A stretch of DNA of 64,000 nucleotides from Alphaproteobacteria bacterium UBA828 (GCA_002296185.1 DBHM01000027.1:158867-222866); one strand, 5' to 3'. Shown: positions 27,126 to 42,570, counted from the stretch's first letter. Notes: a model not told the origin generated them from the sequence alone. A program made the numbers and translations.

Positions 27126-27199
27126 TGGTTGGGGGAATAGGATTCGAACCTATATTTACGGAGTCAGAGTCCGCTGTCCTACCGTTAGACGATCCCCCA
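27126..27199 (-). tRNA. tRNA-Gln (anticodon CUG)
   Basis: The reverse complement folds into a cloverleaf: a U1-A72 acceptor stem (UGGGGGA/UCCCCCA), a GUCU/GGAC D-stem, a GCGGA/UCCGU anticodon stem with loop CUCUGAC, T-arm AUAGG-UUCGAAU-CCUAU, and an encoded CCA. Confidence 0.8.
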
Positions 27200-30693: not shown

Positions 30694-32238
30694 ATGTCAG
30701 AACGAATTTTAATTTTAGATTTTGGCTCACAAGTAACTCAACTGATTGCTCGTCGTGTGCGTGAATCAGGTGTGTATTGTGAAATGAGACCTTACACAAT
30801 GCAAGATAAAGAGATTAAAAAGTTTTCTCCATGTGCAATAATTTTATCAGGCGGGCCTTCATCAATTACTAATTCAAAAGCTCCAAGACCTTCCAAAATG
30901 GTTTTTGAATGCGGTGTACCTGTTTTAGGAATTTGTTATGGGCAGCAAGTTATGTGCGAAACTCTTGGAGGAAAGGTAGAGTCGTCTAGCTCCCGAGAAT
31001 TTGGTAGAGCTGATATGGAAATACTAGAAACATGCGAATTATTTGAGGGAATATGGAGTGTTGCCTCCACTCAAACTGTGTGGATGAGCCACGGAGATCG
31101 TGTGATAGACCTACCTGAGGGGTTTAGGGTTGTCGCTGCTTCCAAAGGTGCTCCTATGGCTGCGATAGCTGACGATACCCATAAATTTTACGGTGTTCAG
31201 TTTCATCCTGAGGTTGTCCATACTCCAAGTGGTGGAGCGCTAATTAAGAACTTCGTTCAAAGAGTAGCCAAGTGTGATGGATCCTGGACTATGTCAGCAT
31301 TCAAGAAGCGGGCTATTAAAGCAATAAGAGATCAGGTGGGATCAGGTAGAGTCGTGTGTGGGTTGTCTGGGGGAGTCGATTCAAGTGTTGTTGCTGCTTT
31401 ATTACATCAAGCTATAGGCGATCGGCTAACATGTGTCTTCGTAGACTCTGGGCTTCTTAGGCTTGGAGAAGCAGATGAAGTAGTCAATATTTTCAAGAAG
31501 GAACTTAATGTCCATCTGTTACATAAGAATGCTTCTCTTGAATTCCTATCTGCTTTAGCGGGGGTATCAGACCCTGAGGAAAAGCGTAAGATTATTGGAT
31601 CGACATTCATTGATGTTTTTGAGCGCGCGGCCCTTGAAATTGGAGGAGCAGATTTTCTGGCCCAAGGAACATTATATCCCGATGTTATAGAGAGTGTTTC
31701 TGTTTCTGGTCCAAGTGCAGTAATTAAATCTCATCATAATGTAGGCGGATTACCGGAGAGGATGAATTTACAACTTGTCGAACCTGTTAGAGAGCTTTTT
31801 AAAGATGAGGTACGTGAATTAGGACGTGAGCTTAATCTTCCAGAATCATTGATTGGACGTCATCCATTCCCAGGTCCAGGTCTTGCAATCAGGATACCTG
31901 GGGAGGTAACGGAAGGTAAAGCTAATTTATTAAGAAAAGCAGATGCTATTTTTATTGATGAAATTCGTTCCGCAGGTTTGTACGATATTATTTGGCAGGC
32001 TTTTACTGTATTATTACCAGTTCGTACTGTAGGTGTTATGGGAGATGCTCGCACTTATGATAATGTATGTGCACTTAGAGCTGTCACTTCAACAGATGGA
32101 ATGACAGCTGACTTTTACCATTTTGACATGGATTTTCTCGGGAAAGTTTCTAATAGAATTGTAAATGAGGTGCCTGGTATTAATAGAGTAGTTTATGATG
32201 TAACTAGCAAGCCACCAGGTACCATTGAGTGGGAATGA
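30694..32238 (+). CDS. guaA: GMP synthase (glutamine-hydrolysing)
   Basis: GATase domain (ILILDFGSQ...GICYG), ATP-PPase SGGVDSSV motif, and a conserved C-terminal dimerisation domain. Confidence 0.9.
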
Positions 32239-32266
32239 CAAGTAAATTTATTAGGGAGAATGAAAC

Positions 32267-33721
32267 ATGAGTAAGGTAATCAAGGGTGGAACAATTGTTA
32301 CAGCTGATAGAATCTATATGGCTGATGTGCTGGTTGAAAAGGATATCATCGCTGATATTGGCACCGGGCTTTCGGGAGATGAAACACTTGATGCCAGCGG
32401 TTGCTATGTAATGCCGGGTGGTATTGACCCACATACACATCTCGATATGCCGTTCATGGGAACCTACACCTCAGATAATTTTGAGTCCGGTACTAGGGCA
32501 GCACTATCTGGCGGTACCACAATGGTAGTGGATTTCTGTCTACCGGCACCTGGGCACTCACTTCTGGAGGCAATTCAGGCCTGGGACAATAAATCTTCTC
32601 TGGCGACAACTGACTACTCTTTCCATATGGCAATCACTTGGTGGGGCGAGGAGGTGTTCAATGAAATGTCAGCTGTTGTAGATAAGGGTATTAATACCTT
32701 TAAACACTTCATGGCCTATAAGGGCGCGCTGATGGTAGATGACGATGAAATGTATGCATCATTCCAGCGTTGTGCAGAATTAGGAGCAATGCCACTAGTT
32801 CATGCCGAAAATGGAGATGTCGTTGCACAGTTGCAGGCAAAGTTGATGGCTGAGGGGAATAATGGTCCCGAGGCGCATGCCTATTCTCGCCCGCCCGAGG
32901 TCGAAGGCGAGGCAACCAACAGAGCTATCATGATTGCCGATATGGCTGGCGTTCCGCTTTATGTTGTGCATGTTTCCTGTGAGCAGGCGCATGAGGCCAT
33001 CCGACGGGCGCGGCAGAAGGGTATGCGGGTCTATGGTGAACCGCTGATCCAGCATTTGCTGCTTGATGAGGGCGAATATGCCAATGATGATTGGGATCAT
33101 GCTGCGCGCCGCGTGATGTCACCGCCTTTCCGAAATCAACAGCATCAGGACAGCCTTTGGGCCGGTTTACAGGCAGGCAGCCTGCAGGTCGTTGCCACTG
33201 ATCATTGTGCTTTCACAACTGAGCAGAAGCGCTATGGTGTTGACGATTTCACCAAGATTCCGAATGGTACAGGTGGCCTTGAAGACCGTTTGCCGCTGCT
33301 TTGGACGCATGGAGTGAATACTGGCCGCCTTACGATGAATGAATTTGTTGCTACTACATCGACCAATATTGCCAAGGCGCTGAATATGTATCCACGCAAG
33401 GGTGCTATTCTTGAGGGTGCAGACGCAGATATTATCGTTTGGGATCCTAAGCGCGAAAAGACAATCAGTGTCGATAGCCAGCAATCAGCCATTGATTACA
33501 ATGTATTTGAGGGATTTAAAGTCAAGGGTCTGCCGCGTTTCACTATGACCAGGGGCTATGTCGCAATCAGTGAGAACGAGATCATGACGCGAGAGGGTCA
33601 TGGAAAGTTCGTTTCGCGTGAACCTTTCGGCGCAACCAACAAGGCGCTTTCGCAGTGGAAGGCATTGACAGCACCTCGAAAGGTGATCCGTGATCCAGCG
33701 AAGATGCCAGCTGGTGTATAA
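32267..33721 (+). CDS. hydA: Dihydropyrimidinase / D-hydantoinase (cyclic amidohydrolase)
   Basis: 484 aa with a metal-binding GGIDPHTH motif and long collinear similarity to D-hydantoinases (SRPPEVEGEATNRAI...VVHVSCEQA). GC content rises to about 57% through the gene. Confidence 0.85.
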   Translation: MSKVIKGGTIVTADRIYMADVLVEKDIIADIGTGLSGDETLDASGCYVMPGGIDPHTHLDMPFMGTYTSDNFESGTRAALSGGTTMVVDFCLPAPGHSLLEAIQAWDNKSSLATTDYSFHMAITWWGEEVFNEMSAVVDKGINTFKHFMAYKGALMVDDDEMYASFQRCAELGAMPLVHAENGDVVAQLQAKLMAEGNNGPEAHAYSRPPEVEGEATNRAIMIADMAGVPLYVVHVSCEQAHEAIRRARQKGMRVYGEPLIQHLLLDEGEYANDDWDHAARRVMSPPFRNQQHQDSLWAGLQAGSLQVVATDHCAFTTEQKRYGVDDFTKIPNGTGGLEDRLPLLWTHGVNTGRLTMNEFVATTSTNIAKALNMYPRKGAILEGADADIIVWDPKREKTISVDSQQSAIDYNVFEGFKVKGLPRFTMTRGYVAISENEIMTREGHGKFVSREPFGATNKALSQWKALTAPRKVIRDPAKMPAGV

Positions 33722-33857
33722 CTAGCATGCGAACAACGATTAAGGTGGAGTTAATTAAATATATTAAAAACAATAACTAGTTGCTAGTTTCAAAAATGAT
33801 TTCTAGAAGCTTACTTAGATTTCGGGTTTGAAGTGAAATTCTTGGGGAGTATTAGTC

Positions 33858-35726
33858 TTGCGAAATTTTAGAACAGTTCTTTTCGACAAAAATCCTGGGC
33901 GGAATGCACAGACGGTCGGCATTGCGCGAGAACTGGGCACCGATATTGAACTCATTCACGAGCCATCGGTTGGTGTCGTGGGCAACAAAGGCGATTCTCA
34001 GTGTTATCTCGGCGTACAGCGCAAGGTTGAAGCAATTCACGATTGTCTGCGTAGCAGTATTGGACAGAGTGATGGGCAGATGCGCGTCCGTTTGGTGCAA
34101 CCAGAATATTCCGTCGCAACCTCTGATGGTATGCGAAACGGTACGCGCGAGATGCGCTATTCGCTAATCGGCCGTGAAGTCACCAACGATACGATAACGG
34201 AACATCTCAGTGCTAGCGGACTTGAGGGTACCGTTGCCGTAGTCGCTTGTGACAAGCCACCTGTTGGAACACTGGCTGCCCTACTGGAGCATGACCGACC
34301 GTCGATAATTATGTCGGACGGACCGATCCGCCCGGGCCTAGACTCCGTCACTAAAGAGCGGATCGACATTATAACCGGATTCCAAGTCGCCGGGAGCTCC
34401 GATGAGGAGATGAAGAAGCGCGTCGCTTGCGAAGCGTGCCCAGGCTATGGCAGCTGCGGAGGCATGTTTACGTATAACACAATGCAAACCTTCATTGCAG
34501 TTGTCGGTATGGAGCCACTGCACATGGTTTCGCCGCCCTCGGACGACCCACGGCGTATCGAACATTATCCAAGCGAGTTGATATCTTACTTAGATAGGCT
34601 TATAGCCAATGACCTTTCGCCACGTAAGATTGTCAATCGCGATTCCATTCGCAATGCGATGATTGTGGCCATGGCGATTGGTGGCTCAACTAATGTTCTA
34701 CTGCATGGTCCAGAGATTGCTCGTGCCGCAGGATTTAGCAGCTTTACGAAAGACATCATGTCGCCGGAGGAGTTCAATCACCTCTCTCAATACGTAGTGC
34801 CAGTGCTGATCAATGCGCGGCCATTTGGGCAATATTCTATGGTCGACATTGATGATAAGGGTGGTATTCAAGTTATCGTCAAGGAGCTACTAGAGGCAGG
34901 ATTACTAAACGGTGACGTCATGACTTGTACAGGAGAAACCTTGATTGAACAGGTAGCGCGCCTTGATCCTCCGGCGCCAGACGGTGAGGTCATTTACTCG
35001 GTTGAGAAGCCCTTCAAGCCTACGGGGGGCCTTCGCGTGCTCGGTGGAAATTTATCACCTGAGTTTAGTGCTGTCTTAAAACTTGCTGGCGTTGAGGGGG
35101 GGCTAGAAAACAACGTCTTCAATGGCAAGGCACGGGTCTTCAATAGTGAAGTCGAACTGCTTGATACACTGGAGAACCAATCGGAAGTCTTCAAAAACAA
35201 CGACATGATCATTGTCCGCTACGAAGGCCCAAGTGGGGCACCAGGTATGCCAGAAATGCTCGACTCTACCTCGCGTATCACTACCTTATGCCGAGAGCAA
35301 GGGATCGTTGTGGGCTTAATGACCGACGCGCGTTTCTCCGGTGGTTCCGTCGGTCTCGTGATCGGTCATGTTGGTCCGGAAGCGGCTCTCGGGGGTCCAA
35401 TTGCCTATATAGAAGACGGCGACGACATTGTCGTTGACTTAAATAGGAACGAAATAAACTGCCTACAGCTAGGCAATGAATCGATATTATCCGCTCGTAA
35501 GGCAAGCTGGGATAAGGCTGTCGCGGATAATGGCGACATGCATCCGGCAATTGGTGATGTAGATACACGCTTGTTACATAGGATGCGGCGTTCGGCTGTC
35601 TCGGCTGTATTTGGCGCTGGCATGCATCCCGACCGAGAGCTCTGGGTCCACGCTGCACGCAAGCCAGAGATAACTGGATTCGTACCATCAAACAAGTACC
35701 GGGAAGGCTCTGCGAAAGCGTTCTAG
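33858..35726 (+). CDS. IlvD/EDD-family dehydratase (dihydroxy-acid or sugar-acid dehydratase)
   Basis: CDK motif (VVACDKPPVG), Fe-S motif CEACPGYGSCGGMFT, and TDARFSGGSVGLVIGHVGPEAALGGPIA. It has a TTG start, no obvious RBS, and high GC (about 55%). Confidence 0.75.
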   Translation: MRNFRTVLFDKNPGRNAQTVGIARELGTDIELIHEPSVGVVGNKGDSQCYLGVQRKVEAIHDCLRSSIGQSDGQMRVRLVQPEYSVATSDGMRNGTREMRYSLIGREVTNDTITEHLSASGLEGTVAVVACDKPPVGTLAALLEHDRPSIIMSDGPIRPGLDSVTKERIDIITGFQVAGSSDEEMKKRVACEACPGYGSCGGMFTYNTMQTFIAVVGMEPLHMVSPPSDDPRRIEHYPSELISYLDRLIANDLSPRKIVNRDSIRNAMIVAMAIGGSTNVLLHGPEIARAAGFSSFTKDIMSPEEFNHLSQYVVPVLINARPFGQYSMVDIDDKGGIQVIVKELLEAGLLNGDVMTCTGETLIEQVARLDPPAPDGEVIYSVEKPFKPTGGLRVLGGNLSPEFSAVLKLAGVEGGLENNVFNGKARVFNSEVELLDTLENQSEVFKNNDMIIVRYEGPSGAPGMPEMLDSTSRITTLCREQGIVVGLMTDARFSGGSVGLVIGHVGPEAALGGPIAYIEDGDDIVVDLNRNEINCLQLGNESILSARKASWDKAVADNGDMHPAIGDVDTRLLHRMRRSAVSAVFGAGMHPDRELWVHAARKPEITGFVPSNKYREGSAKAF

Positions 35727-35891
35727 GTGAGCCCAGAGCGATTTAGTAGGAATAGATTTTAGAGTGTCATAACCTGGTCTGGCGGGTTTGGTCCTGGTGC
35801 TTGATACAATTGTGGAAAGAATCCGGCAACTACGCCTTTTTCTTTACTAGTCTTGAATACATAAGCGACTTTCATAGAAATCTCGAAAAAA

Positions 35892-35946: not shown

Positions 35947-36462
35947 TTGTATATGAAAGCTATTATATTTTTTTTATTTAACATAATACAGATAGGTAAA
36001 AATATAGAATTCATGATGTTCTCAATCTTTGCTCAAATTAATAATATTTTTAAACATAAAAATACTTGGAAGGTCGCCTCTAAGAATACTTTATGGTGTC
36101 TTTTAGGTTGCTCTATAGGGGATCTTGGTACAATAGCTTTTTTTCAGTTTATGGAAATTGATTGGCCAGTCTTTTCAATAATGGTTCTAGCTATTGTTAA
36201 TGGTTTGATTACGTCAATTCTTTTGGAAACTCTTATCCTTACAAGGCAGATGAATCTTAAAAACTCTTTTAGAACTGCAGTTGGAATGTCATTCATTTCA
36301 ATGATTGCAATGGAAATTGCCATGAATATTACAGATTTAATTTTCACGGGTGGTGCAGTTTTAAATTGGTGGGTAGTCCCATTAATGTTGATAGCGGGTT
36401 TTCTTACCGCAGTACCCTACAATTACTGGCGTCTTAAAGCTTTTGGAAAATCATGTCATTAA
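35947..36462 (+). CDS. Small integral membrane protein (4-5 TM) with a conserved-looking WCLLGCSIGDLG motif
   Basis: 171-aa hydrophobic ORF in a very AT-rich island. The start may be the downstream MMFSIF. Function unknown. Confidence 0.45.
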   Translation: MYMKAIIFFLFNIIQIGKNIEFMMFSIFAQINNIFKHKNTWKVASKNTLWCLLGCSIGDLGTIAFFQFMEIDWPVFSIMVLAIVNGLITSILLETLILTRQMNLKNSFRTAVGMSFISMIAMEIAMNITDLIFTGGAVLNWWVVPLMLIAGFLTAVPYNYWRLKAFGKSCH

Positions 36463-36564
36463 ATTAATAATGAATTTGAAATCGTATATTATATGGATAC
36501 ATATAGTTATAAATATACATAAGATTAATTTTGAAAAAATTGTATAATTTTAATTAAGAATAAC

Positions 36565-38076
36565 ATGACAAATAATTTTTTTGTAATTTTAGGAAATCAA
36601 CTATTTGATCCCAAAATTTTAAAGTCCAAAGGTTGTGGGCATGTTTTTATGGCAGAAGATTTTGGTCTATGTAAATATGTAAAGCATCATAAGCTAAAAA
36701 TCTATTTGTTCTTATGTTCAATGAGAGAATATAGAGATGAATTAAAGAGGTATGGTTTCAAAGTATCTTATTTTTCTCTTGAAGATAGAACTGATAACCT
36801 CAATTACCCAAAATTTTTAATAGATTTTGTAGAAAAAAATAATATATCTAAGATCAATTTCTTTGAAATAGAAGACCATTTCTTTGAAAAAGAAATCTTT
36901 GATCAAATGAAGAAGAAAGGCCTAAAATTACAACTCCATAAATCGCCAATGTTTATGTTTTCACGTAATGAATTTATTTCACTTCACGAAGGGAAAAAAA
37001 ACTTTAGACTTTCTAATTTTTATAAAATAGGTAGAAAAAAATTTAATATACTTATGAATGAAAATTGCGAACCAATTGGAAAAAAGTGGTCATTTGATCA
37101 TGAAAATAGAAAAAAAATACCCAAAAATGTTTCAATCCCAAAACTTCAGCCTCCCAGTCGAACTAAGTACCACAATCAGGTTATTCAATTAATAGAGCAG
37201 CATTTTAGCGATCATCATGGCAGATTAGATAATATATGGTTTCCTGTAGAGCGGGGAGGTGTTGACAGGCATCTTGAATTTTTTCTGGCTCACAAGCTTA
37301 TATATTTTGGGGTATATGAGGACGCAATACGGCATGAAGAAAATTTTTTATTTCATAGCTGTATTAGTCCATTTCTAAATATCGGGTTAATTACACCAGA
37401 CTCATTATTAGAGAGAGTGTTGGAGTTATTTAATAAGGGGTATGCCCCGATTAACTCCATCGAAGGATTTGTGAGGCAAGTATTAGGGTGGCGTGAGTTT
37501 ATACGTGGAATATACCAAATGAAGGGCTCAGAACAGCAGCAAAGCAATTTCTGGGCGCATAAACGTTATTTAAGTGAAAGTTGGTATAATGGTTCGACCG
37601 GGATTGTACCTTTGGATGATTCTATTCAATCGGCAATAAAAGATGGATATAATCATCACATACCTAGGCTTATGGTAATCGCTAATTTGATGAATTTGAG
37701 CGAGATCGATCCAAGGAATATTTATAAATGGTTCATGGAAATGTATATTGATTCGTCAGACTGGGTAATGATACCCAATGTATTTGGAATGGCAACGTTT
37801 GCTGATGGGGGTCTGATATCAACTAAGCCATATTCATGCAGTTCAAATTATATACTTAAAATGAGTAATTATAAAAAGGGAAACTGGTGTAAAGTAGTCG
37901 ATGGATTGTACTGGCGTTTTATTGATAAGCATCAAAAATTTTATAAGTCTAATCCCCGTCTTTCGTTTCAAGTAAAAATGCTAGAAAGAATAGATATTGA
38001 AAGAAAAAAAGAAATTTTCCAATGTGCAGAAATTTTTTTGACTAAAAACACATATTATTCTTCAGAGTTTCTTTAA
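36565..38076 (+). CDS. Cryptochrome/photolyase-family protein, COG3046 (PhrB/CryB-like, deoxyribodipyrimidine photolyase-related)
   Basis: N-terminal VILGNQLF motif and a C-terminal FAD-binding region (HHIPRLMVIANLM...DWVMIPNVFGMATFADGGLISTKPY...NYILKMSNY), matching COG3046 proteins of about 500 aa. Confidence 0.65.
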   Translation: MTNNFFVILGNQLFDPKILKSKGCGHVFMAEDFGLCKYVKHHKLKIYLFLCSMREYRDELKRYGFKVSYFSLEDRTDNLNYPKFLIDFVEKNNISKINFFEIEDHFFEKEIFDQMKKKGLKLQLHKSPMFMFSRNEFISLHEGKKNFRLSNFYKIGRKKFNILMNENCEPIGKKWSFDHENRKKIPKNVSIPKLQPPSRTKYHNQVIQLIEQHFSDHHGRLDNIWFPVERGGVDRHLEFFLAHKLIYFGVYEDAIRHEENFLFHSCISPFLNIGLITPDSLLERVLELFNKGYAPINSIEGFVRQVLGWREFIRGIYQMKGSEQQQSNFWAHKRYLSESWYNGSTGIVPLDDSIQSAIKDGYNHHIPRLMVIANLMNLSEIDPRNIYKWFMEMYIDSSDWVMIPNVFGMATFADGGLISTKPYSCSSNYILKMSNYKKGNWCKVVDGLYWRFIDKHQKFYKSNPRLSFQVKMLERIDIERKKEIFQCAEIFLTKNTYYSSEFL

Positions 38077-38238
38077 ATTTTTTACTGGATATTTTTGGAT
38101 TTTTCATGAAGAAGAAGTGGTTTTTATAAGATATTAATTTAAGTCTATTATCACTATAGAATGTAATGGTTGTGTGTGGTTGAAATAAAATTATGAGACG
38201 GCTAGGGTGTAAGAAGTATTCCTTGAAGGATTAAATCA

Positions 38239-39651
38239 ATGTCAGTGCTACTTGATCAAAACAAAAACTATAATGCACAATTTGGACCAATCTTTAGATC
38301 ATCAGCAATTTTTTATATTCCTCGTGATGTTAAGACGACTATAACTGTTTCCAATTACTGGGATTTTAAAAACAATTTAGAAGTAGGGCTATTATTTTCA
38401 ATACGTAAACTTAGTGGAGAATTAGTTGAGAGACGAGAGCTATACTTTAATGATGGATTAGTTATTAATGAGAGTAAATGGCCTATCGAAGAGGGTTCTG
38501 TCGAGGTGGAGGCATTCGGTAATAAAAACCTTCGTATACCTTATGCGGCTGTCATGGGAGTATATGAAACAGAAGCTTCGATTACTATGGTTCACTCTTA
38601 TGGGAGAAACCACAACTTAATAGAAATAGAAGATCGGAGTTCCTTAACCTCTGGACGCGAGAGCTGTTGGACTATTCGTCAAGATAATGATGTTGAGAAT
38701 AAAGCGGTTTTTCATAATGGTCATCTAGGTGTACCTAATCAAATAGCAAAATTTACGTTAACAAATGTTGAGGGAGCGGAGCATTCTACAGATTTCAGTA
38801 TGCCCCTTTTAGAACCGTTTGAAACATTTGTTTTTAACTTGTCTGAAATAGTTCCACAATATAAGGATTTTCTTAGCGGCTCAGACGGTTGGGGGACATT
38901 ACATTTTGAAAATAAAACTGCCTTCACGCGACTACTTTTAGTTTGGCAAAATAAATTAACAGGGGAGTTACAAGTAACTCATTCAAATTTTGATTATTCT
39001 GAGATTGAGACTAATAAGATAGAGGCAACTAAGCCAGCAATTATGAAATGGCCTTCAATATTAACTCAATCAGATTCTGGGCAAGTCGTGCTATATCCAA
39101 AATTTTCCAAAGGTATATATAAAATAACTTCAAATAAAAGTATAACTGAAACTGATAAAGGTTTGTTCATTAAAACTAAGGATATTGATGCTCTTGAATT
39201 TACGTCCTTAGATAAAAACACAATACCTTCACGAATAGTAACTGGAATCACTTATCAAAAAGAAAAAAATACTTTACCATTAGAGTGTTCCATGGGAATT
39301 GTTCACGAAAAAAGACCGCCAAAAAGATTTCACTGGGCTGTTGTCTCAAAAAAGTTCAAGTCACGTCTATTCTTCAATGCCTTTACAGAAATATATCAGG
39401 TCCCTGATGACTTGTTTATCGTATTTAGACTTTATACGGCAAAGAGAAATCAATATGTGGAAAAACGTTTGGATATTCAATCTCTGAATGAAATCCCAGA
39501 TGGTATTTATATAGATGAATTATTTGCCAATATAGATCAATCAGGTCATGAGGATTATTGTTATGTTTCAATGTTCTCAAACTTTGGTGGATTGCTAATG
39601 TATTCTTCTATGCAAAAAAAATCTTCTATGACTATAGAGCATTCATTTTAG
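38239..39651 (+). CDS. Hypothetical protein (470 aa, orphan, predicted beta-rich and soluble)
   Basis: Long uninterrupted ORF with a good RBS (AAGGATT) and host-island-like codon usage. It has no recognisable motifs, no TM segments and no signal peptide. Confidence 0.5.
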   Translation: MSVLLDQNKNYNAQFGPIFRSSAIFYIPRDVKTTITVSNYWDFKNNLEVGLLFSIRKLSGELVERRELYFNDGLVINESKWPIEEGSVEVEAFGNKNLRIPYAAVMGVYETEASITMVHSYGRNHNLIEIEDRSSLTSGRESCWTIRQDNDVENKAVFHNGHLGVPNQIAKFTLTNVEGAEHSTDFSMPLLEPFETFVFNLSEIVPQYKDFLSGSDGWGTLHFENKTAFTRLLLVWQNKLTGELQVTHSNFDYSEIETNKIEATKPAIMKWPSILTQSDSGQVVLYPKFSKGIYKITSNKSITETDKGLFIKTKDIDALEFTSLDKNTIPSRIVTGITYQKEKNTLPLECSMGIVHEKRPPKRFHWAVVSKKFKSRLFFNAFTEIYQVPDDLFIVFRLYTAKRNQYVEKRLDIQSLNEIPDGIYIDELFANIDQSGHEDYCYVSMFSNFGGLLMYSSMQKKSSMTIEHSF

Positions 39652-39683
39652 TCTATTACTTCTTAAGTAAGAATTTTTTCAAT

Positions 39684-40349
39684 TTAGCGATAGATTCCAT
39701 CCCACTCAGTTTTTGAAACCTCTACATTTCCGTCGTCATCAACTGTAGGTCGTTGTAGTACAAAAGTTGTTTCAGGTGTAATTACTCCATAATCCATATA
39801 GCCCATTCGAGCTAAAGGACGCATCTCTGATGTATTTACAATACCATCTTTGATAAATTTATCATTTATATAGACCCCAACTACTTGACCTATAGTCATA
39901 AAATGGCCTTTGTCACCTTGATCAACTACATCTGGTAATTCTATAGTTTTCCAGTGTTTGCACTCTAGAGCGGCTGGAGATCGAGAAACGCGGGGTGGCT
40001 TCACAAATTGTGACTCTGTTGTTTCAAGATTTGCAAGAGAGAATTCATTTGCTAAATAGTCAACAGGTGCTGAGCTAATATTCATACCTTCACGGGTATC
40101 CCACGTAGATAAAGAACACGTAAATTCGCCATTATCTTCAATATTGCGCAGACTGTCTTTTCGGTCTACAGAAGTAAACATCACATAATTTGGATCCGCA
40201 CCTACTGCATTGAAAAAACTATAAGGTGCAAGGTTTAATATGCCGTCGTTAGAAATAGTTGAAATCCAACCAATGGGTCTTGGTGCAACTAAGGCTTTGA
40301 AGGGGTCATGCTTTAAGCCGTGGTTATTCTCTATACTATCATAGTGCAT
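39684..40349 (-). CDS. Flavin reductase-family protein (FMN-binding split barrel)
   Basis: 221 aa with the flavin-reductase-like domain pattern (LAPYSFFNAVGADPNYVMFTS). Confidence 0.7.
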   Translation of the reverse strand: MHYDSIENNHGLKHDPFKALVAPRPIGWISTISNDGILNLAPYSFFNAVGADPNYVMFTSVDRKDSLRNIEDNGEFTCSLSTWDTREGMNISSAPVDYLANEFSLANLETTESQFVKPPRVSRSPAALECKHWKTIELPDVVDQGDKGHFMTIGQVVGVYINDKFIKDGIVNTSEMRPLARMGYMDYGVITPETTFVLQRPTVDDDGNVEVSKTEWDGIYR

Positions 40350-40443
40350 GATATTATTCCTAAAATACGATTAATAAGTTAAATTATTTTATTAGGCAAT
40401 GACTCGAGTAACTTATCTATAATAATACTTAATTCTGCAATAT

Positions 40444-41496
40444 TTAGTTATGGTGCGTTTCCTCAAACCCTCCAAGAATAGCTATAAGATTGTCACCTAG
40501 AATATCTGATATATACCCTCCTTCTTGTATCATAAGAGTAGGTAGTTTAATTCTTCCTATAGCCTGGCCAATTCTATAAAAGCCATCTGTTGTAATACTC
40601 ATAAAAGCAAGTGGATCACTTTCTGATATATCTAGACCAAGCGCTATAATTAATATTTCAGGTTTAAAAGTTATAATCTCATCTATCGCGAAATTTAATG
40701 TGTCTAGATATGATTGATCAGCTGTATTCTTTTCAAGTGGCAAGTTAATGTTATAGCCCTTTCCCATGGCTAAGCCTGCCTCATCTGAGTATCCAGAAAA
40801 AAATGGATAGTAGTCAGATGGATCACCATGAAGTGAAACAGTTAAAACATCAGACCGGTTGTAAAATATACCTTGAGTACCATTTCCATGGTGTACATCA
40901 ATATCCAATATAGCTATTTTTTTTGCCCCATTTTCAATAAAACATTGCCCGGCTATAGCGGTATTATTAAAAAAACAAAACCCTCCTGCTTGATCTGAGA
41001 AAGCGTGGTGACCTGGAGGTCTGCAAAGAGAATAAGCAAAGGTATTTTTTTTGCTATTTTTAGCATCATCGATTAAAGCAAGTGCTCCAGATACGGCAAC
41101 ATTAGCTGATAATATGGCCCCATCATATGTCCCTTTTCCTATCGGGCATGCAGTATCTGCTTGATAATATCCAGCGAGCCCTATGAGTGATTTTGGTAAT
41201 AAACTCATATTTCGACCTGGGTGTATATTGGGAATAACTTCATTACTGCTATCTGGAAGATTTTGCCACAGACTCCATGAATTTTTAAGGAAATTTATAT
41301 AGCCCTTATCATGTATTGCTTCTATAGGTTTTGTGCCATGATCCTGAGACTCTATTAAATTGTGTCCAGCTGCTCTTGCTGATGCTTCTAAGATTTCCGC
41401 TCGTTTTGGTTGTTCAGGATTATTTTTTAGTTGACCTCTAGAAATAAAGGTTTGTGGTGAATGGATAGTATGATTAGGGGAATAAAACACTCGCAT
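40444..41496 (-). CDS. Histone deacetylase-family amidohydrolase (AcuC / acetylpolyamine amidohydrolase-like)
   Basis: HDAC signatures: PGHHA..GGFCFFNN, DIDVHHGNGTQ, and the Zn ligands D-H-D. Confidence 0.8.
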   Translation of the reverse strand: MRVFYSPNHTIHSPQTFISRGQLKNNPEQPKRAEILEASARAAGHNLIESQDHGTKPIEAIHDKGYINFLKNSWSLWQNLPDSSNEVIPNIHPGRNMSLLPKSLIGLAGYYQADTACPIGKGTYDGAILSANVAVSGALALIDDAKNSKKNTFAYSLCRPPGHHAFSDQAGGFCFFNNTAIAGQCFIENGAKKIAILDIDVHHGNGTQGIFYNRSDVLTVSLHGDPSDYYPFFSGYSDEAGLAMGKGYNINLPLEKNTADQSYLDTLNFAIDEIITFKPEILIIALGLDISESDPLAFMSITTDGFYRIGQAIGRIKLPTLMIQEGGYISDILGDNLIAILGGFEETHHN

Positions 41497-41667: not shown

Positions 41668-42570
41668 TTGAATATAAATATTAATAAATTATTTATCCCG
41701 ACAGCATTGGTCTTATTAGGAGGGATAACCTTTGGTAGTATTTTCTCTGCAAATATCTTTGCTTATGAGTCGGGATTGCCTCACTTCTCATATGTTTTCT
41801 GGCAAATTTTTCTTGGTTCTTTAATTCTATTAATAATATCCTTAGCAACTAAGACTTTCCCCAAATTCACATGGGGGAATATTAGGGCTTACATATTTGT
41901 TGCTGTCCTTGGGCTAATAGTTCCAGTTATTGTATTTAATGTCGTGGCAGATAAGTTGCCCCCTGGTATCATCACTCTTTCTGTAGCATTAATCCCAGCT
42001 AGTACTTATTTACTCTCCCTGCTTATTAAGGCAGATAAGTTTCGCGTAGTAAGTATATTAGGAGTTATCATAGGATTCGGGAGTGTTTTATTAATTGTTT
42101 TACCCCAGGGTAGTTTGCCAATTGAGGGTGCTGAAATCTGGGTCATTTTTTCTTTACTCGTTCCAATATCTGCTGGGACTAATAATGCTTTTAGTGCGCT
42201 AGTTATACCTCCAAACACACAGACTTTTGGGCTAGCAACAGGAACCATGTTAGTAGCATCAATAATTTTACTTCCAATAAGCCTGGCTTATGATGGACTT
42301 CATTTTTTTGGTAACTATGGATGGGAATCTATAGGTTCCACCCTGTGGGCTTCAATTGTATGGGTGACGATTTACATGTGTTTTTTCGAAATAGTCAAAA
42401 GAACAAGCGGTCTTTTTTATGCTCAGGTTAATTATATCATCGTTGCAGCTGGCATTATATGGTCATGGGCTATCTTTGCAGATGTTCTGAGCGCTTGGGT
42501 ATGGGGTGCTGTAGCTATGCTATTCGTTAGCCTTGCACTTGTGAATTTGGGAACAAAAGTAAAGGTATAA
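41668..42570 (+). CDS. DMT-superfamily (EamA-like) transporter
   Basis: 300-aa protein with about 10 TM segments and a two-repeat EamA-like architecture. Confidence 0.6.
   Translation: MNININKLFIPTALVLLGGITFGSIFSANIFAYESGLPHFSYVFWQIFLGSLILLIISLATKTFPKFTWGNIRAYIFVAVLGLIVPVIVFNVVADKLPPGIITLSVALIPASTYLLSLLIKADKFRVVSILGVIIGFGSVLLIVLPQGSLPIEGAEIWVIFSLLVPISAGTNNAFSALVIPPNTQTFGLATGTMLVASIILLPISLAYDGLHFFGNYGWESIGSTLWASIVWVTIYMCFFEIVKRTSGLFYAQVNYIIVAAGIIWSWAIFADVLSAWVWGAVAMLFVSLALVNLGTKVKV

Follow-up and report, generated by a model that had tools for sequence, protein, structure and literature searches.

The stretch of 64,000 nucleotides from Alphaproteobacteria bacterium UBA828 analysed here (GCA_002296185.1 DBHM01000027.1:158867-222866), referred to as the window, carries two genes of deviating composition directly behind guaA. 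The GMP synthase gene guaA (30694-32238, plus strand; NF000848, 801 bits) is a conserved host anchor with a GC content at third codon positions (GC3) of 0.27. It is followed on the same strand by hydA (32267-33721), encoding a dihydropyrimidinase/D-hydantoinase, and by a gene with a TTG start (33858-35726) encoding a 622-amino-acid Fe-S dehydratase of the IlvD/EDD family, similar to dihydroxy-acid dehydratases (DHADs). The window, in which GcrA is also encoded, has an overall GC content of ~0.38, compared to 0.50 for hydA and 0.52 for the dehydratase gene. GC3 was 0.485 for hydA (z = 6.1) and 0.525 for the dehydratase gene (z = 7.3) when the 54 other open reading frames (ORFs) of the window served as the reference (mean 0.276, sd 0.034, maximum 0.353), and the Karlin codon bias relative to the other genes gave z values of 2.9 and 3.8, respectively. 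Antisense stop-free runs of at least 80 codons occurred at 2.7 per kb in the block and at 0.68 per kb elsewhere. An earlier description made from the DNA alone (the sequence-only reading) had marked 32267-35726 as a compositional outlier with a surplus of antisense ORFs, and both observations were borne out. The steady GC climb through hydA to 57 % and the ~55 % thereafter that it had described were not, since 55-57 % is a local maximum within a profile that forms a hump of 0.41-0.57 across hydA and runs at 0.47-0.57 along the dehydratase gene. The ratio of nonsynonymous to synonymous substitution rates was ~0.035-0.04 for the two genes (~0.035 for hydA, measured against locus L093), from which both are judged to be intact, functional and under strong purifying selection. 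The order guaA-hydA-dehydratase was identical on 23-24 contigs from independent assemblies (ENA/Tara, JGI, Logan, NCBI). The recurrence of the exact proteins in these sources, together with GcrA, marks the host as a marine alphaproteobacterium.

The hydA product scored 597.2 bits against TIGR02033 (cutoff 393.25), with residues 4-451 of the 454-position profile covered, and 877 bits against the Sinorhizobium meliloti protein of PDB entry 3DC8, with ~80 % identity over the full length. The motifs DPHTH, FKHFMAYK, VHAENG, VHxS and ATDHC were all identical in the alignment with 3DC8, and we take them to be the binuclear-metal ligands of cyclic amidohydrolases (HxH, carbamylated Lys, two His and Asp). 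Judged by this homology, hydA encodes a bona fide dihydropyrimidinase, with 5,6-dihydrouracil, dihydrothymine or hydantoins as its predicted substrates. Its nearest relatives, with 93 (P0122), 91 (P0123), 85 (P0126) and 84 % (P0130) amino acid identity, are all located in canonical PreT-PreA-TetR-(aminotransferase)-M20-hydA-ABC clusters for pyrimidine degradation, in which the M20 peptidase beside hydA is a putative beta-ureidopropionase. The hosts of these relatives have 51-57 % GC, and the GC3 of their hydA genes (0.55-0.66) equals that of the neighbouring genes. No homologues of PreT, PreA, the M20 amidohydrolase or the aminotransferase were found in the window, and the production of beta-alanine and ammonia by hydA would need partner genes encoded elsewhere.

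The spacer of 28 nt between guaA and hydA (32239-32266) contains an AGGGAG ribosome-binding site (RBS), as the sequence-only reading had noted. The hydA-proximal 17 nt, AGGGAGAATGAAACATG, which include the ATG, are derived from a pyd operon: they are identical at 16 of 17 positions to the M20-hydA spacer of L093 and L096 (L-numbers denote the compared genome and metagenome loci, and W the copy in the window). Homology to donor-type pyd operons ends directly past the hydA stop codon, and at the other end the donor-derived sequence begins within 28 nt of the guaA stop. Based on the spacer match and the end of homology at the stop codon, a single ORF appears to have been transplanted with its own RBS, i.e. 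hydA arrived alone with the donor RBS retained. Compared to the nearest donor-like copy, GC3 has shifted from 0.66 to 0.486, which is ~45 % of the way toward host equilibrium, and the four-fold-site distance to that copy is ~1.0. Integrase fragments were observed within a few kb of the pyd operons of some relatives (L093, 1-304; L094, 14-181; L096, 1432-1632), with the domains DUF6538 plus Phage_integrase or Arm-DNA-bind_3, and low-GC hypothetical genes were also present around the operon in L093. The nearby integrase fragments give a hint that the donor pyd operon was itself on an island.

The dehydratase matched the Pfam models ILVD_EDD_N (214.5 bits) and ILV_EDD_C (169.4 bits) and was under every NCBIfam cutoff for DHADs, Edd and sugar-acid dehydratases. 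The scores were 379 vs 618, 427 vs 644 and 251 vs 710 for TIGR00110, PRK00911 and PRK12448, and 198 vs 882, 165 vs 808 and 182 vs 708 for the L-arabinonate dehydratase, YjhG/YagF and Edd models, respectively. Its nearest solved relatives are DHADs, with ~300 bits, while the sugar-acid dehydratases in the PDB reached 124-156 bits; the sugar-acid type assigned in the sequence-only reading was therefore abandoned. The motifs CDK, CGGM, PEML and RFSGGS align with those of the plant DHAD 5YM0, and presumably provide the Fe-S cysteine, the Mg site and the catalytic serine. The first cluster cysteine falls outside the region aligned with 5YM0, and SQCY at residues 46-49 is a candidate for it. The protein is predicted to be an Fe-S dehydratase acting on a 2,3-dihydroxy acid. 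The TTG start at 33858 is supported by a GTG, TTG or ATG at the aligned position in most of the homologues fetched and by a conserved GGGGAG-type RBS. Codons 2-9 (33861-33885, CGAAATTTTAGAACAGTTCTTTTCG) contain the inverted repeat AGAACnGTTCT and keep their nucleotide sequence even where the host GC3 reaches 0.8, which could reflect either a translation-initiation constraint or an operator.

Dehydratases of this family share 74-82 % identity between Alpha-, Beta- and Gammaproteobacteria and Chloroflexota (SAR202), and many of their hosts (L013-L092, L106-L185) are Granulosicoccaceae and sponge symbionts. In all genomes examined the gene stands alone, with no ilv neighbours, and in some of them other IlvD paralogues coexist with it. 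No conserved neighbour was found among 77 loci, the largest neighbour cluster being present in just 11 and functionally unrelated, so that the context gives no clue to the substrate. The literature on IlvD/EDD subfamilies was uninformative for this enzyme. With neither pyd nor ilv partners in the window, the view that hydA and the dehydratase do not make up a pathway could be kept, and their pairing is incidental.

In most of the 77 genomes the GC3 of the dehydratase gene is close to that of the host, over a range of 0.17-0.90; the gene thus has no intrinsic need for GC-rich codons. The exceptions are about ten high-GC hosts in which it exceeds the host value by more than 0.12, reaching +0.22 in L016. 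In W, L010/L014 and L013 it lies 0.25-0.28 above the host. The dehydratases of W, L010, L013, L101, L103 and L104 form a subclade with 100 % bootstrap support, nested among high-GC lineages. Those of L106-L110 and L150 are 93-95 % identical to W (94-95 % for L106, L108, L109 and L150) and were taken into the same subclade on the basis of this identity together with the shared leader, tail and boundary repeats. The subclade is found in at least five unrelated contexts (linked to guaA, between argA and pdxJ, beside a Zn-ADH gene in a host with a GC3 of 0.12-0.21, and two more), and the GC3 of its hosts ranges from 0.12 to 0.8. In L103 (1-3693), the dehydratase has a GC3 of 0.58 in an extremely AT-rich host (flank GC3 0.12-0.21). 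A 19-nt fossil of a guaA end precedes it, matching the guaA terminus of the window at 18 of 19 positions (blastn; 17/18 by eye), and no guaA is present on the ~1.7 kb of contig upstream of the gene.

The sequence-only reading had held that the same two genes at the same locus in close relatives would speak against an acquisition. Synteny of guaB-guaA is shared with L010, L013 and L111 (guaA 75-76 % identical at the amino acid level), and these three loci do have the dehydratase directly behind guaA with the same GC3 anomaly, but they lack hydA; in L031 the dehydratase is near guaA. Nor does the shared position amount to vertical conservation. All host genes shared between W and L010/L013 are saturated at four-fold sites, with an identity close to the saturation expectation, whereas the dehydratase has a distance of 0.75-0.90, so vertical inheritance by itself does not explain the guaA-dehydratase arrangement of the relatives. 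Between L010 and L013, the four-fold distance is 0.44-0.51 for the dehydratase and an adjacent amidase gene of host composition and 0.7-2.2 for the flanks, and the segment holding these two genes (L010 10001-13519, L013 9998-13521) resembles a recombination tract exchanged after the lineages had split. An ancient guaA-amidase-dehydratase synteny was considered and ruled out, as the L031 amidase is only 30-34 % identical to that of L010/L013 and not orthologous. In L150, the dehydratase is 95 % identical to W, its GC3 of 0.685 equals that of the host and the gene lies directly after the guaA stop; because of this host-matched GC3 and direct adjacency L150 is the best candidate for a native or donor arrangement.

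Relative to a starting GC3 of ~0.70, the dehydratase gene of the window (0.525) has moved ~41 % toward host equilibrium, at a four-fold distance of at least 0.75. Both genes thus remain GC3 outliers with higher-GC sources, the nearest hydA hosts having 51-57 % GC, and the sequence-only reading was right in regarding them as foreign and partly ameliorated. It had also regarded them as recently acquired, for which we find the opposite: with GC3 ~40-45 % ameliorated and four-fold distances to donor-like copies of ~0.75-1.0, the acquisitions look long-established and fixed in the population. No hydA was found within 10 kb of the dehydratase at any of 80 genome loci or at the 10 closest, which were those scanned, of 80 metagenome loci.

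The origin of the arrangement is indicated by loci in which the dehydratase is less decayed in its surroundings. In L106, L108 and L110 it is part of a cassette bounded by 21-bp direct repeats, GGAACGATTGAGTGGGAATGA, which copy the guaA terminus and contain GAGTGGGA as their 8-nt centre. L106 has four copies of the 21-mer (GGAACGATTGAGTGGGA(A/G)TGA), each with at most one mismatch, one at the guaA end and three at downstream positions. They delimit three co-oriented single-ORF units, a 448-amino-acid protein (GC3 0.39), a GST (0.33) and the dehydratase (0.71), in a host with a GC3 of 0.60-0.67. L110 has three copies and two units, and in L108 two perfect copies, extended to 41 nt, lie on either side of the dehydratase. 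These four, three and two copies match the repeat at 20-21 of 21 positions, while the background at up to four mismatches was three matches in 1917 kb of unrelated loci. The ~45 nt ahead of each repeat are likewise shared by units with different cargo and fall into two related types. The dehydratase module always comes with a leader of ~60 nt and a 3' tail, giving a cassette of ~2.1 kb in the less decayed relatives, and in every array the cassette ORFs point in the same direction as guaA. In L013 an Ldh_2 gene is inserted at the guaA end and is followed by a clear fossil of the guaA terminus (score 181 vs null 18). Three of the loci (L103, L108 and L110) have such fossils of 19-21 nt; in L013 the fossil extends over at least 32 nt and in L106 over ~66 nt. 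The first cassette behind guaA in L106 (4949-6295) holds its 448-amino-acid ORF where GIsul2-type islands hold the integrase; this ORF was tried as an integrase candidate and rejected, as it had no Pfam or PHROG match and no similarity to P4 integrases.

The same elements can be traced, in a more eroded form, in the window. The last 21 nt of guaA (32218-32238), GGTACCATTGAGTGGGAATGA, match the repeat at 18 of 21 positions with the core GAGTGGGA intact, and constitute the proximal boundary repeat and a putative attB. A degenerate repeat, ACAACGATTAAGGTGGAGTTA, is located 12 nt past the hydA stop (33733-33753) and matches the consensus at 15 of 21 positions. The match had P = 0.0018 by spacer shuffling; the guaA ends of L010 or of the window, used as queries beforehand, had given no significant match (P = 0.17-0.48), and significance came only with the cassette-repeat consensus derived afterwards, so this value should be weighed accordingly. 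In the 64 kb, on both strands, sites with at least 15 of 21 matches to the consensus were found just at the guaA end and at 33733-33753. The latter occupies the place that the guaA-end fossil behind Ldh_2 has in L013 and is taken as the distal boundary of the hydA insert; with repeat matches at the guaA end and past its stop codon, hydA is bracketed in the same way as Ldh_2. An AT-rich spacer ending in AAAATGA follows (33754-33797). It gave a weak MAFFT alignment with the 29-nt spacer and second guaA-end fossil of L010/L013, in which only the last few nt are securely homologous. Next comes the leader of the dehydratase cassette with its RBS (33798-33857, TTTCTAGAAG...GGGGAGTATTAGTC; local alignment score 49 vs a null maximum of 34), which is conserved in W, L010, L013, L101, L103, L106, L108, L109, L110 and L150 irrespective of the genomic context. 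Past the dehydratase stop, the first ~45 nt of the 3' tail can be aligned (35727-35770); the remainder of this tail, 131 nt long in L106, L108 and L110, is missing, as is the distal repeat of those loci. A 9-mer at +35 of the dehydratase was considered as the right-hand repeat and dropped once the true distal repeat had been seen at +131; it is probably a coincidental or RBS-adjacent motif. The order in the window is thus guaA end, hydA unit, decayed repeat, spacer, leader, dehydratase and shortened tail.

The centre of the repeat has a known function elsewhere. Experiments on GIsul2, which integrates at the 3' end of guaA, have defined GAGTGGGA as its att core (PMC9376610), and ICERspD18B, whose 20-bp direct repeat ACAATNGAGTGGGAATNNTT is matched by the repeat described here, integrates at the same place (PMC7775301). 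In Mesorhizobium, guaA is the att site of an integrative and conjugative element (PMC8627217). The GIsul2 integrase moves an integrase-less sub-unit (CR2-sul2) in trans via extra att copies, and tandem insertion that recreates att cores has a precedent in the same element (PMC9376610). For tycheposon-seeded islands a model has been proposed in which elements integrate one after another at a single site, so that earlier arrivals are displaced inward and incomplete target copies stay behind. Among IMG/VR contigs, 62 of viral or prophage-like type (L186-L247) carry the motif ACNATTGAGTGGGARTGA, half of them within 400 nt of the locus end. Many have an ORF of ~400-440 amino acids ~200 nt downstream of the motif, and five of the eight such ORFs tested by Pfam were P4-type integrases (Arm-DNA-bind_3 plus Phage_integrase). 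A scan of the viral contigs with the full 21-mer gave no match. Judging from the contigs with the motif, integration at the guaA terminus appears to be common.

We suggest that one insertion after another at the 3' end of guaA has built up a variable islet whose proximal part is the block, and that the block consists of two independently acquired single-gene modules, a reading to which we assign a probability of about 0.6. The older, distal module would be the DHAD-like dehydratase with its own leader of ~60 nt and short 3' tail. The newer, proximal module would be hydA, excised with only its RBS from the reductive pyrimidine-catabolism operon of a bacterium with 55-57 % GC and inserted between the guaA stop and the dehydratase module, with a degenerate repeat copy left behind. 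The proposed reaction is site-specific recombination at an att site in the guaA terminus, with the core GAGTGGGA, by a P4-family integrase of the GIsul2/ICERspD18B type that would be supplied in trans. New modules would enter beside guaA and displace older ones distally, and could be expressed by read-through from guaA. Such read-through had been proposed in the sequence-only reading on the basis of a spacer with no terminator. No terminator-like hairpin was found in the guaA-hydA spacer by the scan, the nearest plus-strand match being inside hydA, and the array ORFs are co-oriented, so read-through is plausible rather than proven; the promoter/terminator scan performed no better than on shuffled sequence. 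More speculatively, and with the odds somewhat against it, the loci may represent a previously undescribed guaA-anchored, integron-like cassette system of marine bacteria. Integrase-less single-gene cassettes, each ending in a site of ~66 nt (an arm of ~45 nt followed by 21 nt that imitate the end of guaA and hold the core GAGTGGGA), would be stacked in one direction, expressed by guaA read-through and shuffled by P4-type integrases in trans between hosts as distant as GC3 0.12 and 0.8. The window would then hold a fossilised two-cassette array.

Several observations weigh against the two-module reading. The repeat at 33733-33753 has lost its core (AAGGTGGA), and the copies expected at -70 and 3' of the dehydratase are unrecognisable in the window. 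As a repeat-bounded cassette, hydA was not found anywhere else among the compared loci, and the model offers no route by which a single gene such as hydA would gain a recombination site. What is taken for the left repeat around the dehydratase could be a mere fossil of a native guaA neighbour, as in L150, and not an att site. Among the ORFs scanned in the window (genes at 23-46 kb and ten integrase-sized ORFs elsewhere) and in the L013, L106 and L110 arrays, no Phage_integrase or Arm-DNA-bind_3 domain and no integrase, excisionase or other mobility gene was found. Since the ORFs checked contain no integrase, we can only infer that recombination took place in trans. Synonymous distances close to saturation are noisy. 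No excised circular form was observed, nor could sequences of this kind reveal one.

The lack of an integrase among the array and window ORFs leads to the serious rival that the genes were acquired horizontally without site-specific recombination. Illegitimate or homology-facilitated events, anchored on the near-invariant last ~20 nt of guaA (the TIEWE-stop terminus), or Campbell-type single crossovers would then have left the repeated guaA ends as by-products. Such a process agrees with the variable length of the guaA-end fossils (19-21, at least 32 and ~66 nt), with a possible microhomology (GTGGATGAC vs GTGGGAATGAC) at the left hydA junction and with L150, in which adjacency to guaA can be native. 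However, it does not readily account for exact 21-bp repeats that recur with unrelated cargo, for the conserved arm of ~45 nt ahead of each repeat or for a repeat that holds precisely the experimentally defined integrase core. In addition, the flanking guaA sequences of different lineages have a nucleotide identity of only ~69 %, too low for homologous recombination of the ordinary kind. We therefore consider integrase-free recombination unlikely, but it deserves to be kept in view. The sequence-only reading had instead pictured hydA and the dehydratase as a single two-gene cassette, recently received from one high-GC donor. The genes are indeed adjacent and co-oriented, with a similar GC3 (0.485 and 0.525) and degree of amelioration, but the pair was seen nowhere else among the loci scanned. 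The nearest relatives of the two genes also differ, being pyd operons (GC3 0.66) for hydA and guaA-linked dehydratases (GC3 0.69-0.71) for the other. Together with the relatives that have the dehydratase behind guaA without hydA, and with the host-like AT-rich spacer and repeat fossil between the genes, this makes a joint arrival very improbable.

Two further explanations concern whether there was any transfer at all. The dehydratase could be an ancestral neighbour of guaA that was never transferred, its high GC3 being kept by selection at synonymous sites or by unusually slow synonymous change, the gene being very conserved and perhaps strongly expressed. It occupies the same position in W, L010, L013 and L111 and lies near guaA in L031, its protein is extremely conserved, and the grouping of L010 with L013 agrees with the host tree. 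Against this, its GC3 equals that of the host in most other hosts, very AT-rich ones included, and the same subclade is present at unrelated loci of unrelated hosts together with a guaA-end fossil. The amidase of L010/L013, although of host composition, is equally low in synonymous distance, which points to a recombination tract and not to codon selection; an origin without transfer is scarcely to be expected. A chimeric assembly, in which a high-GC fragment was mis-joined to a low-GC scaffold, would fit the metagenome-assembled source and the sharp change of composition. The recurrence of the arrangement on the 23-24 independently assembled contigs and the biologically coherent junctions (donor RBS, conserved leader and repeat fossil) leave it a negligible probability.

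Downstream of the shortened tail, in place of its missing part and the distal repeat, lies a GC-rich remnant of ~110 nt that is specific to the window (35771-35880) and contains a 39-codon antisense ORF (MKVAYVFKTSKEKG...). Blastn and tblastn searches of loci up to L105 gave no homologues but identical copies of the same genome, and a repeat of blastn against 13 subclade loci including L106-L111, L113 and L150 had the same outcome. The rest of the lineage-specific variable region (35947-41496) encodes a DUF4396 protein, a DPRP photolyase-related protein, an orphan of 470 amino acids and, on the minus strand, a flavin reductase and an HDAC-like protein. Neither L010 nor L013 yielded counterparts of these genes, a search for boundary repeats in the region was negative, and the next syntenic host gene is EamA at 41668. 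The first three genes (35947-39651), of which the DUF4396 gene encodes a membrane protein, are co-oriented and have 27-34 % GC; as their GC3 is host-like (0.26-0.29), the low GC content is attributed to amino acid composition. The 470-amino-acid ORF had no Pfam, NCBIfam or PHROG match. A generic search for repeats and inverted repeats over 31.5-46.5 kb found none flanking the block. In an Rfam scan of the window at gathering thresholds the sole match was a tRNA-Gln, with no riboswitch or leader family upstream of hydA or the dehydratase. This tRNA-Gln(CTG), at 27126-27199 on the minus strand, is the only RNA gene of the window and is unconnected with the block.

The way in which streamlined, plasmid-poor marine bacteria acquire single genes is poorly understood, and the end of guaA provides a concrete and testable route. 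The terminus of a protein gene would here be a reusable landing pad behind which repeat-bounded modules of one gene each, of diverse origin, pile up. If the cassettes are mobile, guaA joins tRNA genes and the integron attI as a seed of flexible islands, and the 21-bp repeat becomes a simple search key for mining cargo genes. The conserved and widely transferred DHAD-like dehydratase is a candidate for biochemical study. The locus also calls for caution in annotation, as neighbouring foreign genes need not form a pathway.

Compared to known proteins, hydA has the same motifs as the 3DC8-type dihydropyrimidinases, but in the window it is detached from the PreT/PreA and M20 genes. The dehydratase belongs to the same two-domain fold family as the DHADs of plants and Mycobacterium tuberculosis (5YM0, 6OVT), sharing CDK, CGGM and RFSGGS, and differs from them by its length of 622 amino acids with a C-terminal extension, by standing alone and by scoring below the DHAD cutoffs. 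As regards the arrangement, the tycheposon islands of Prochlorococcus are comparable in that elements integrate again and again at a single att site of a streamlined marine genome, push older ones inward and leave partial copies of the target scattered within a variable island. Their target is a tRNA gene and not the guaA end, however, and here single-gene modules were found and no element bearing a tyrosine recombinase was seen. With integron arrays the loci share tandem, co-oriented and mostly promoterless single-ORF cassettes of mixed GC content, each ending in a conserved sequence resembling a recombination site, with the newest cassette nearest the anchor and plausible expression from an upstream promoter, in this case by guaA read-through. 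Unlike in integrons, no IntI-like ORF was found among the scanned ORFs, no attI or Pc is apparent, and the units are delimited by directly repeated copies of the guaA terminus with an arm of ~45 nt instead of attC hairpins (attC models were not run); the recombinase implied by the core is of the P4 type and not IntI. The closest parallel in the target itself is with GIsul2 and ICERspD18B, as the insertions in the window and its relatives lie exactly at the guaA terminus and, in L106, L108 and L110, are bounded by repeats of ~19-21 bp with GAGTGGGA, of which the window has an intact core in the left copy. The units described here differ from those elements in being 1-2.4 kb in size with one metabolic gene each, in having no integrase, AlpA, transfer or resistance genes among the ORFs checked, and in their hosts, which are marine Alphaproteobacteria and other marine bacteria; the repeats in the window are, moreover, decayed. 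What is added to these systems is the recognition of single-gene cassettes bounded by the guaA terminus in related marine bacteria, of which the window is a decayed two-unit example.

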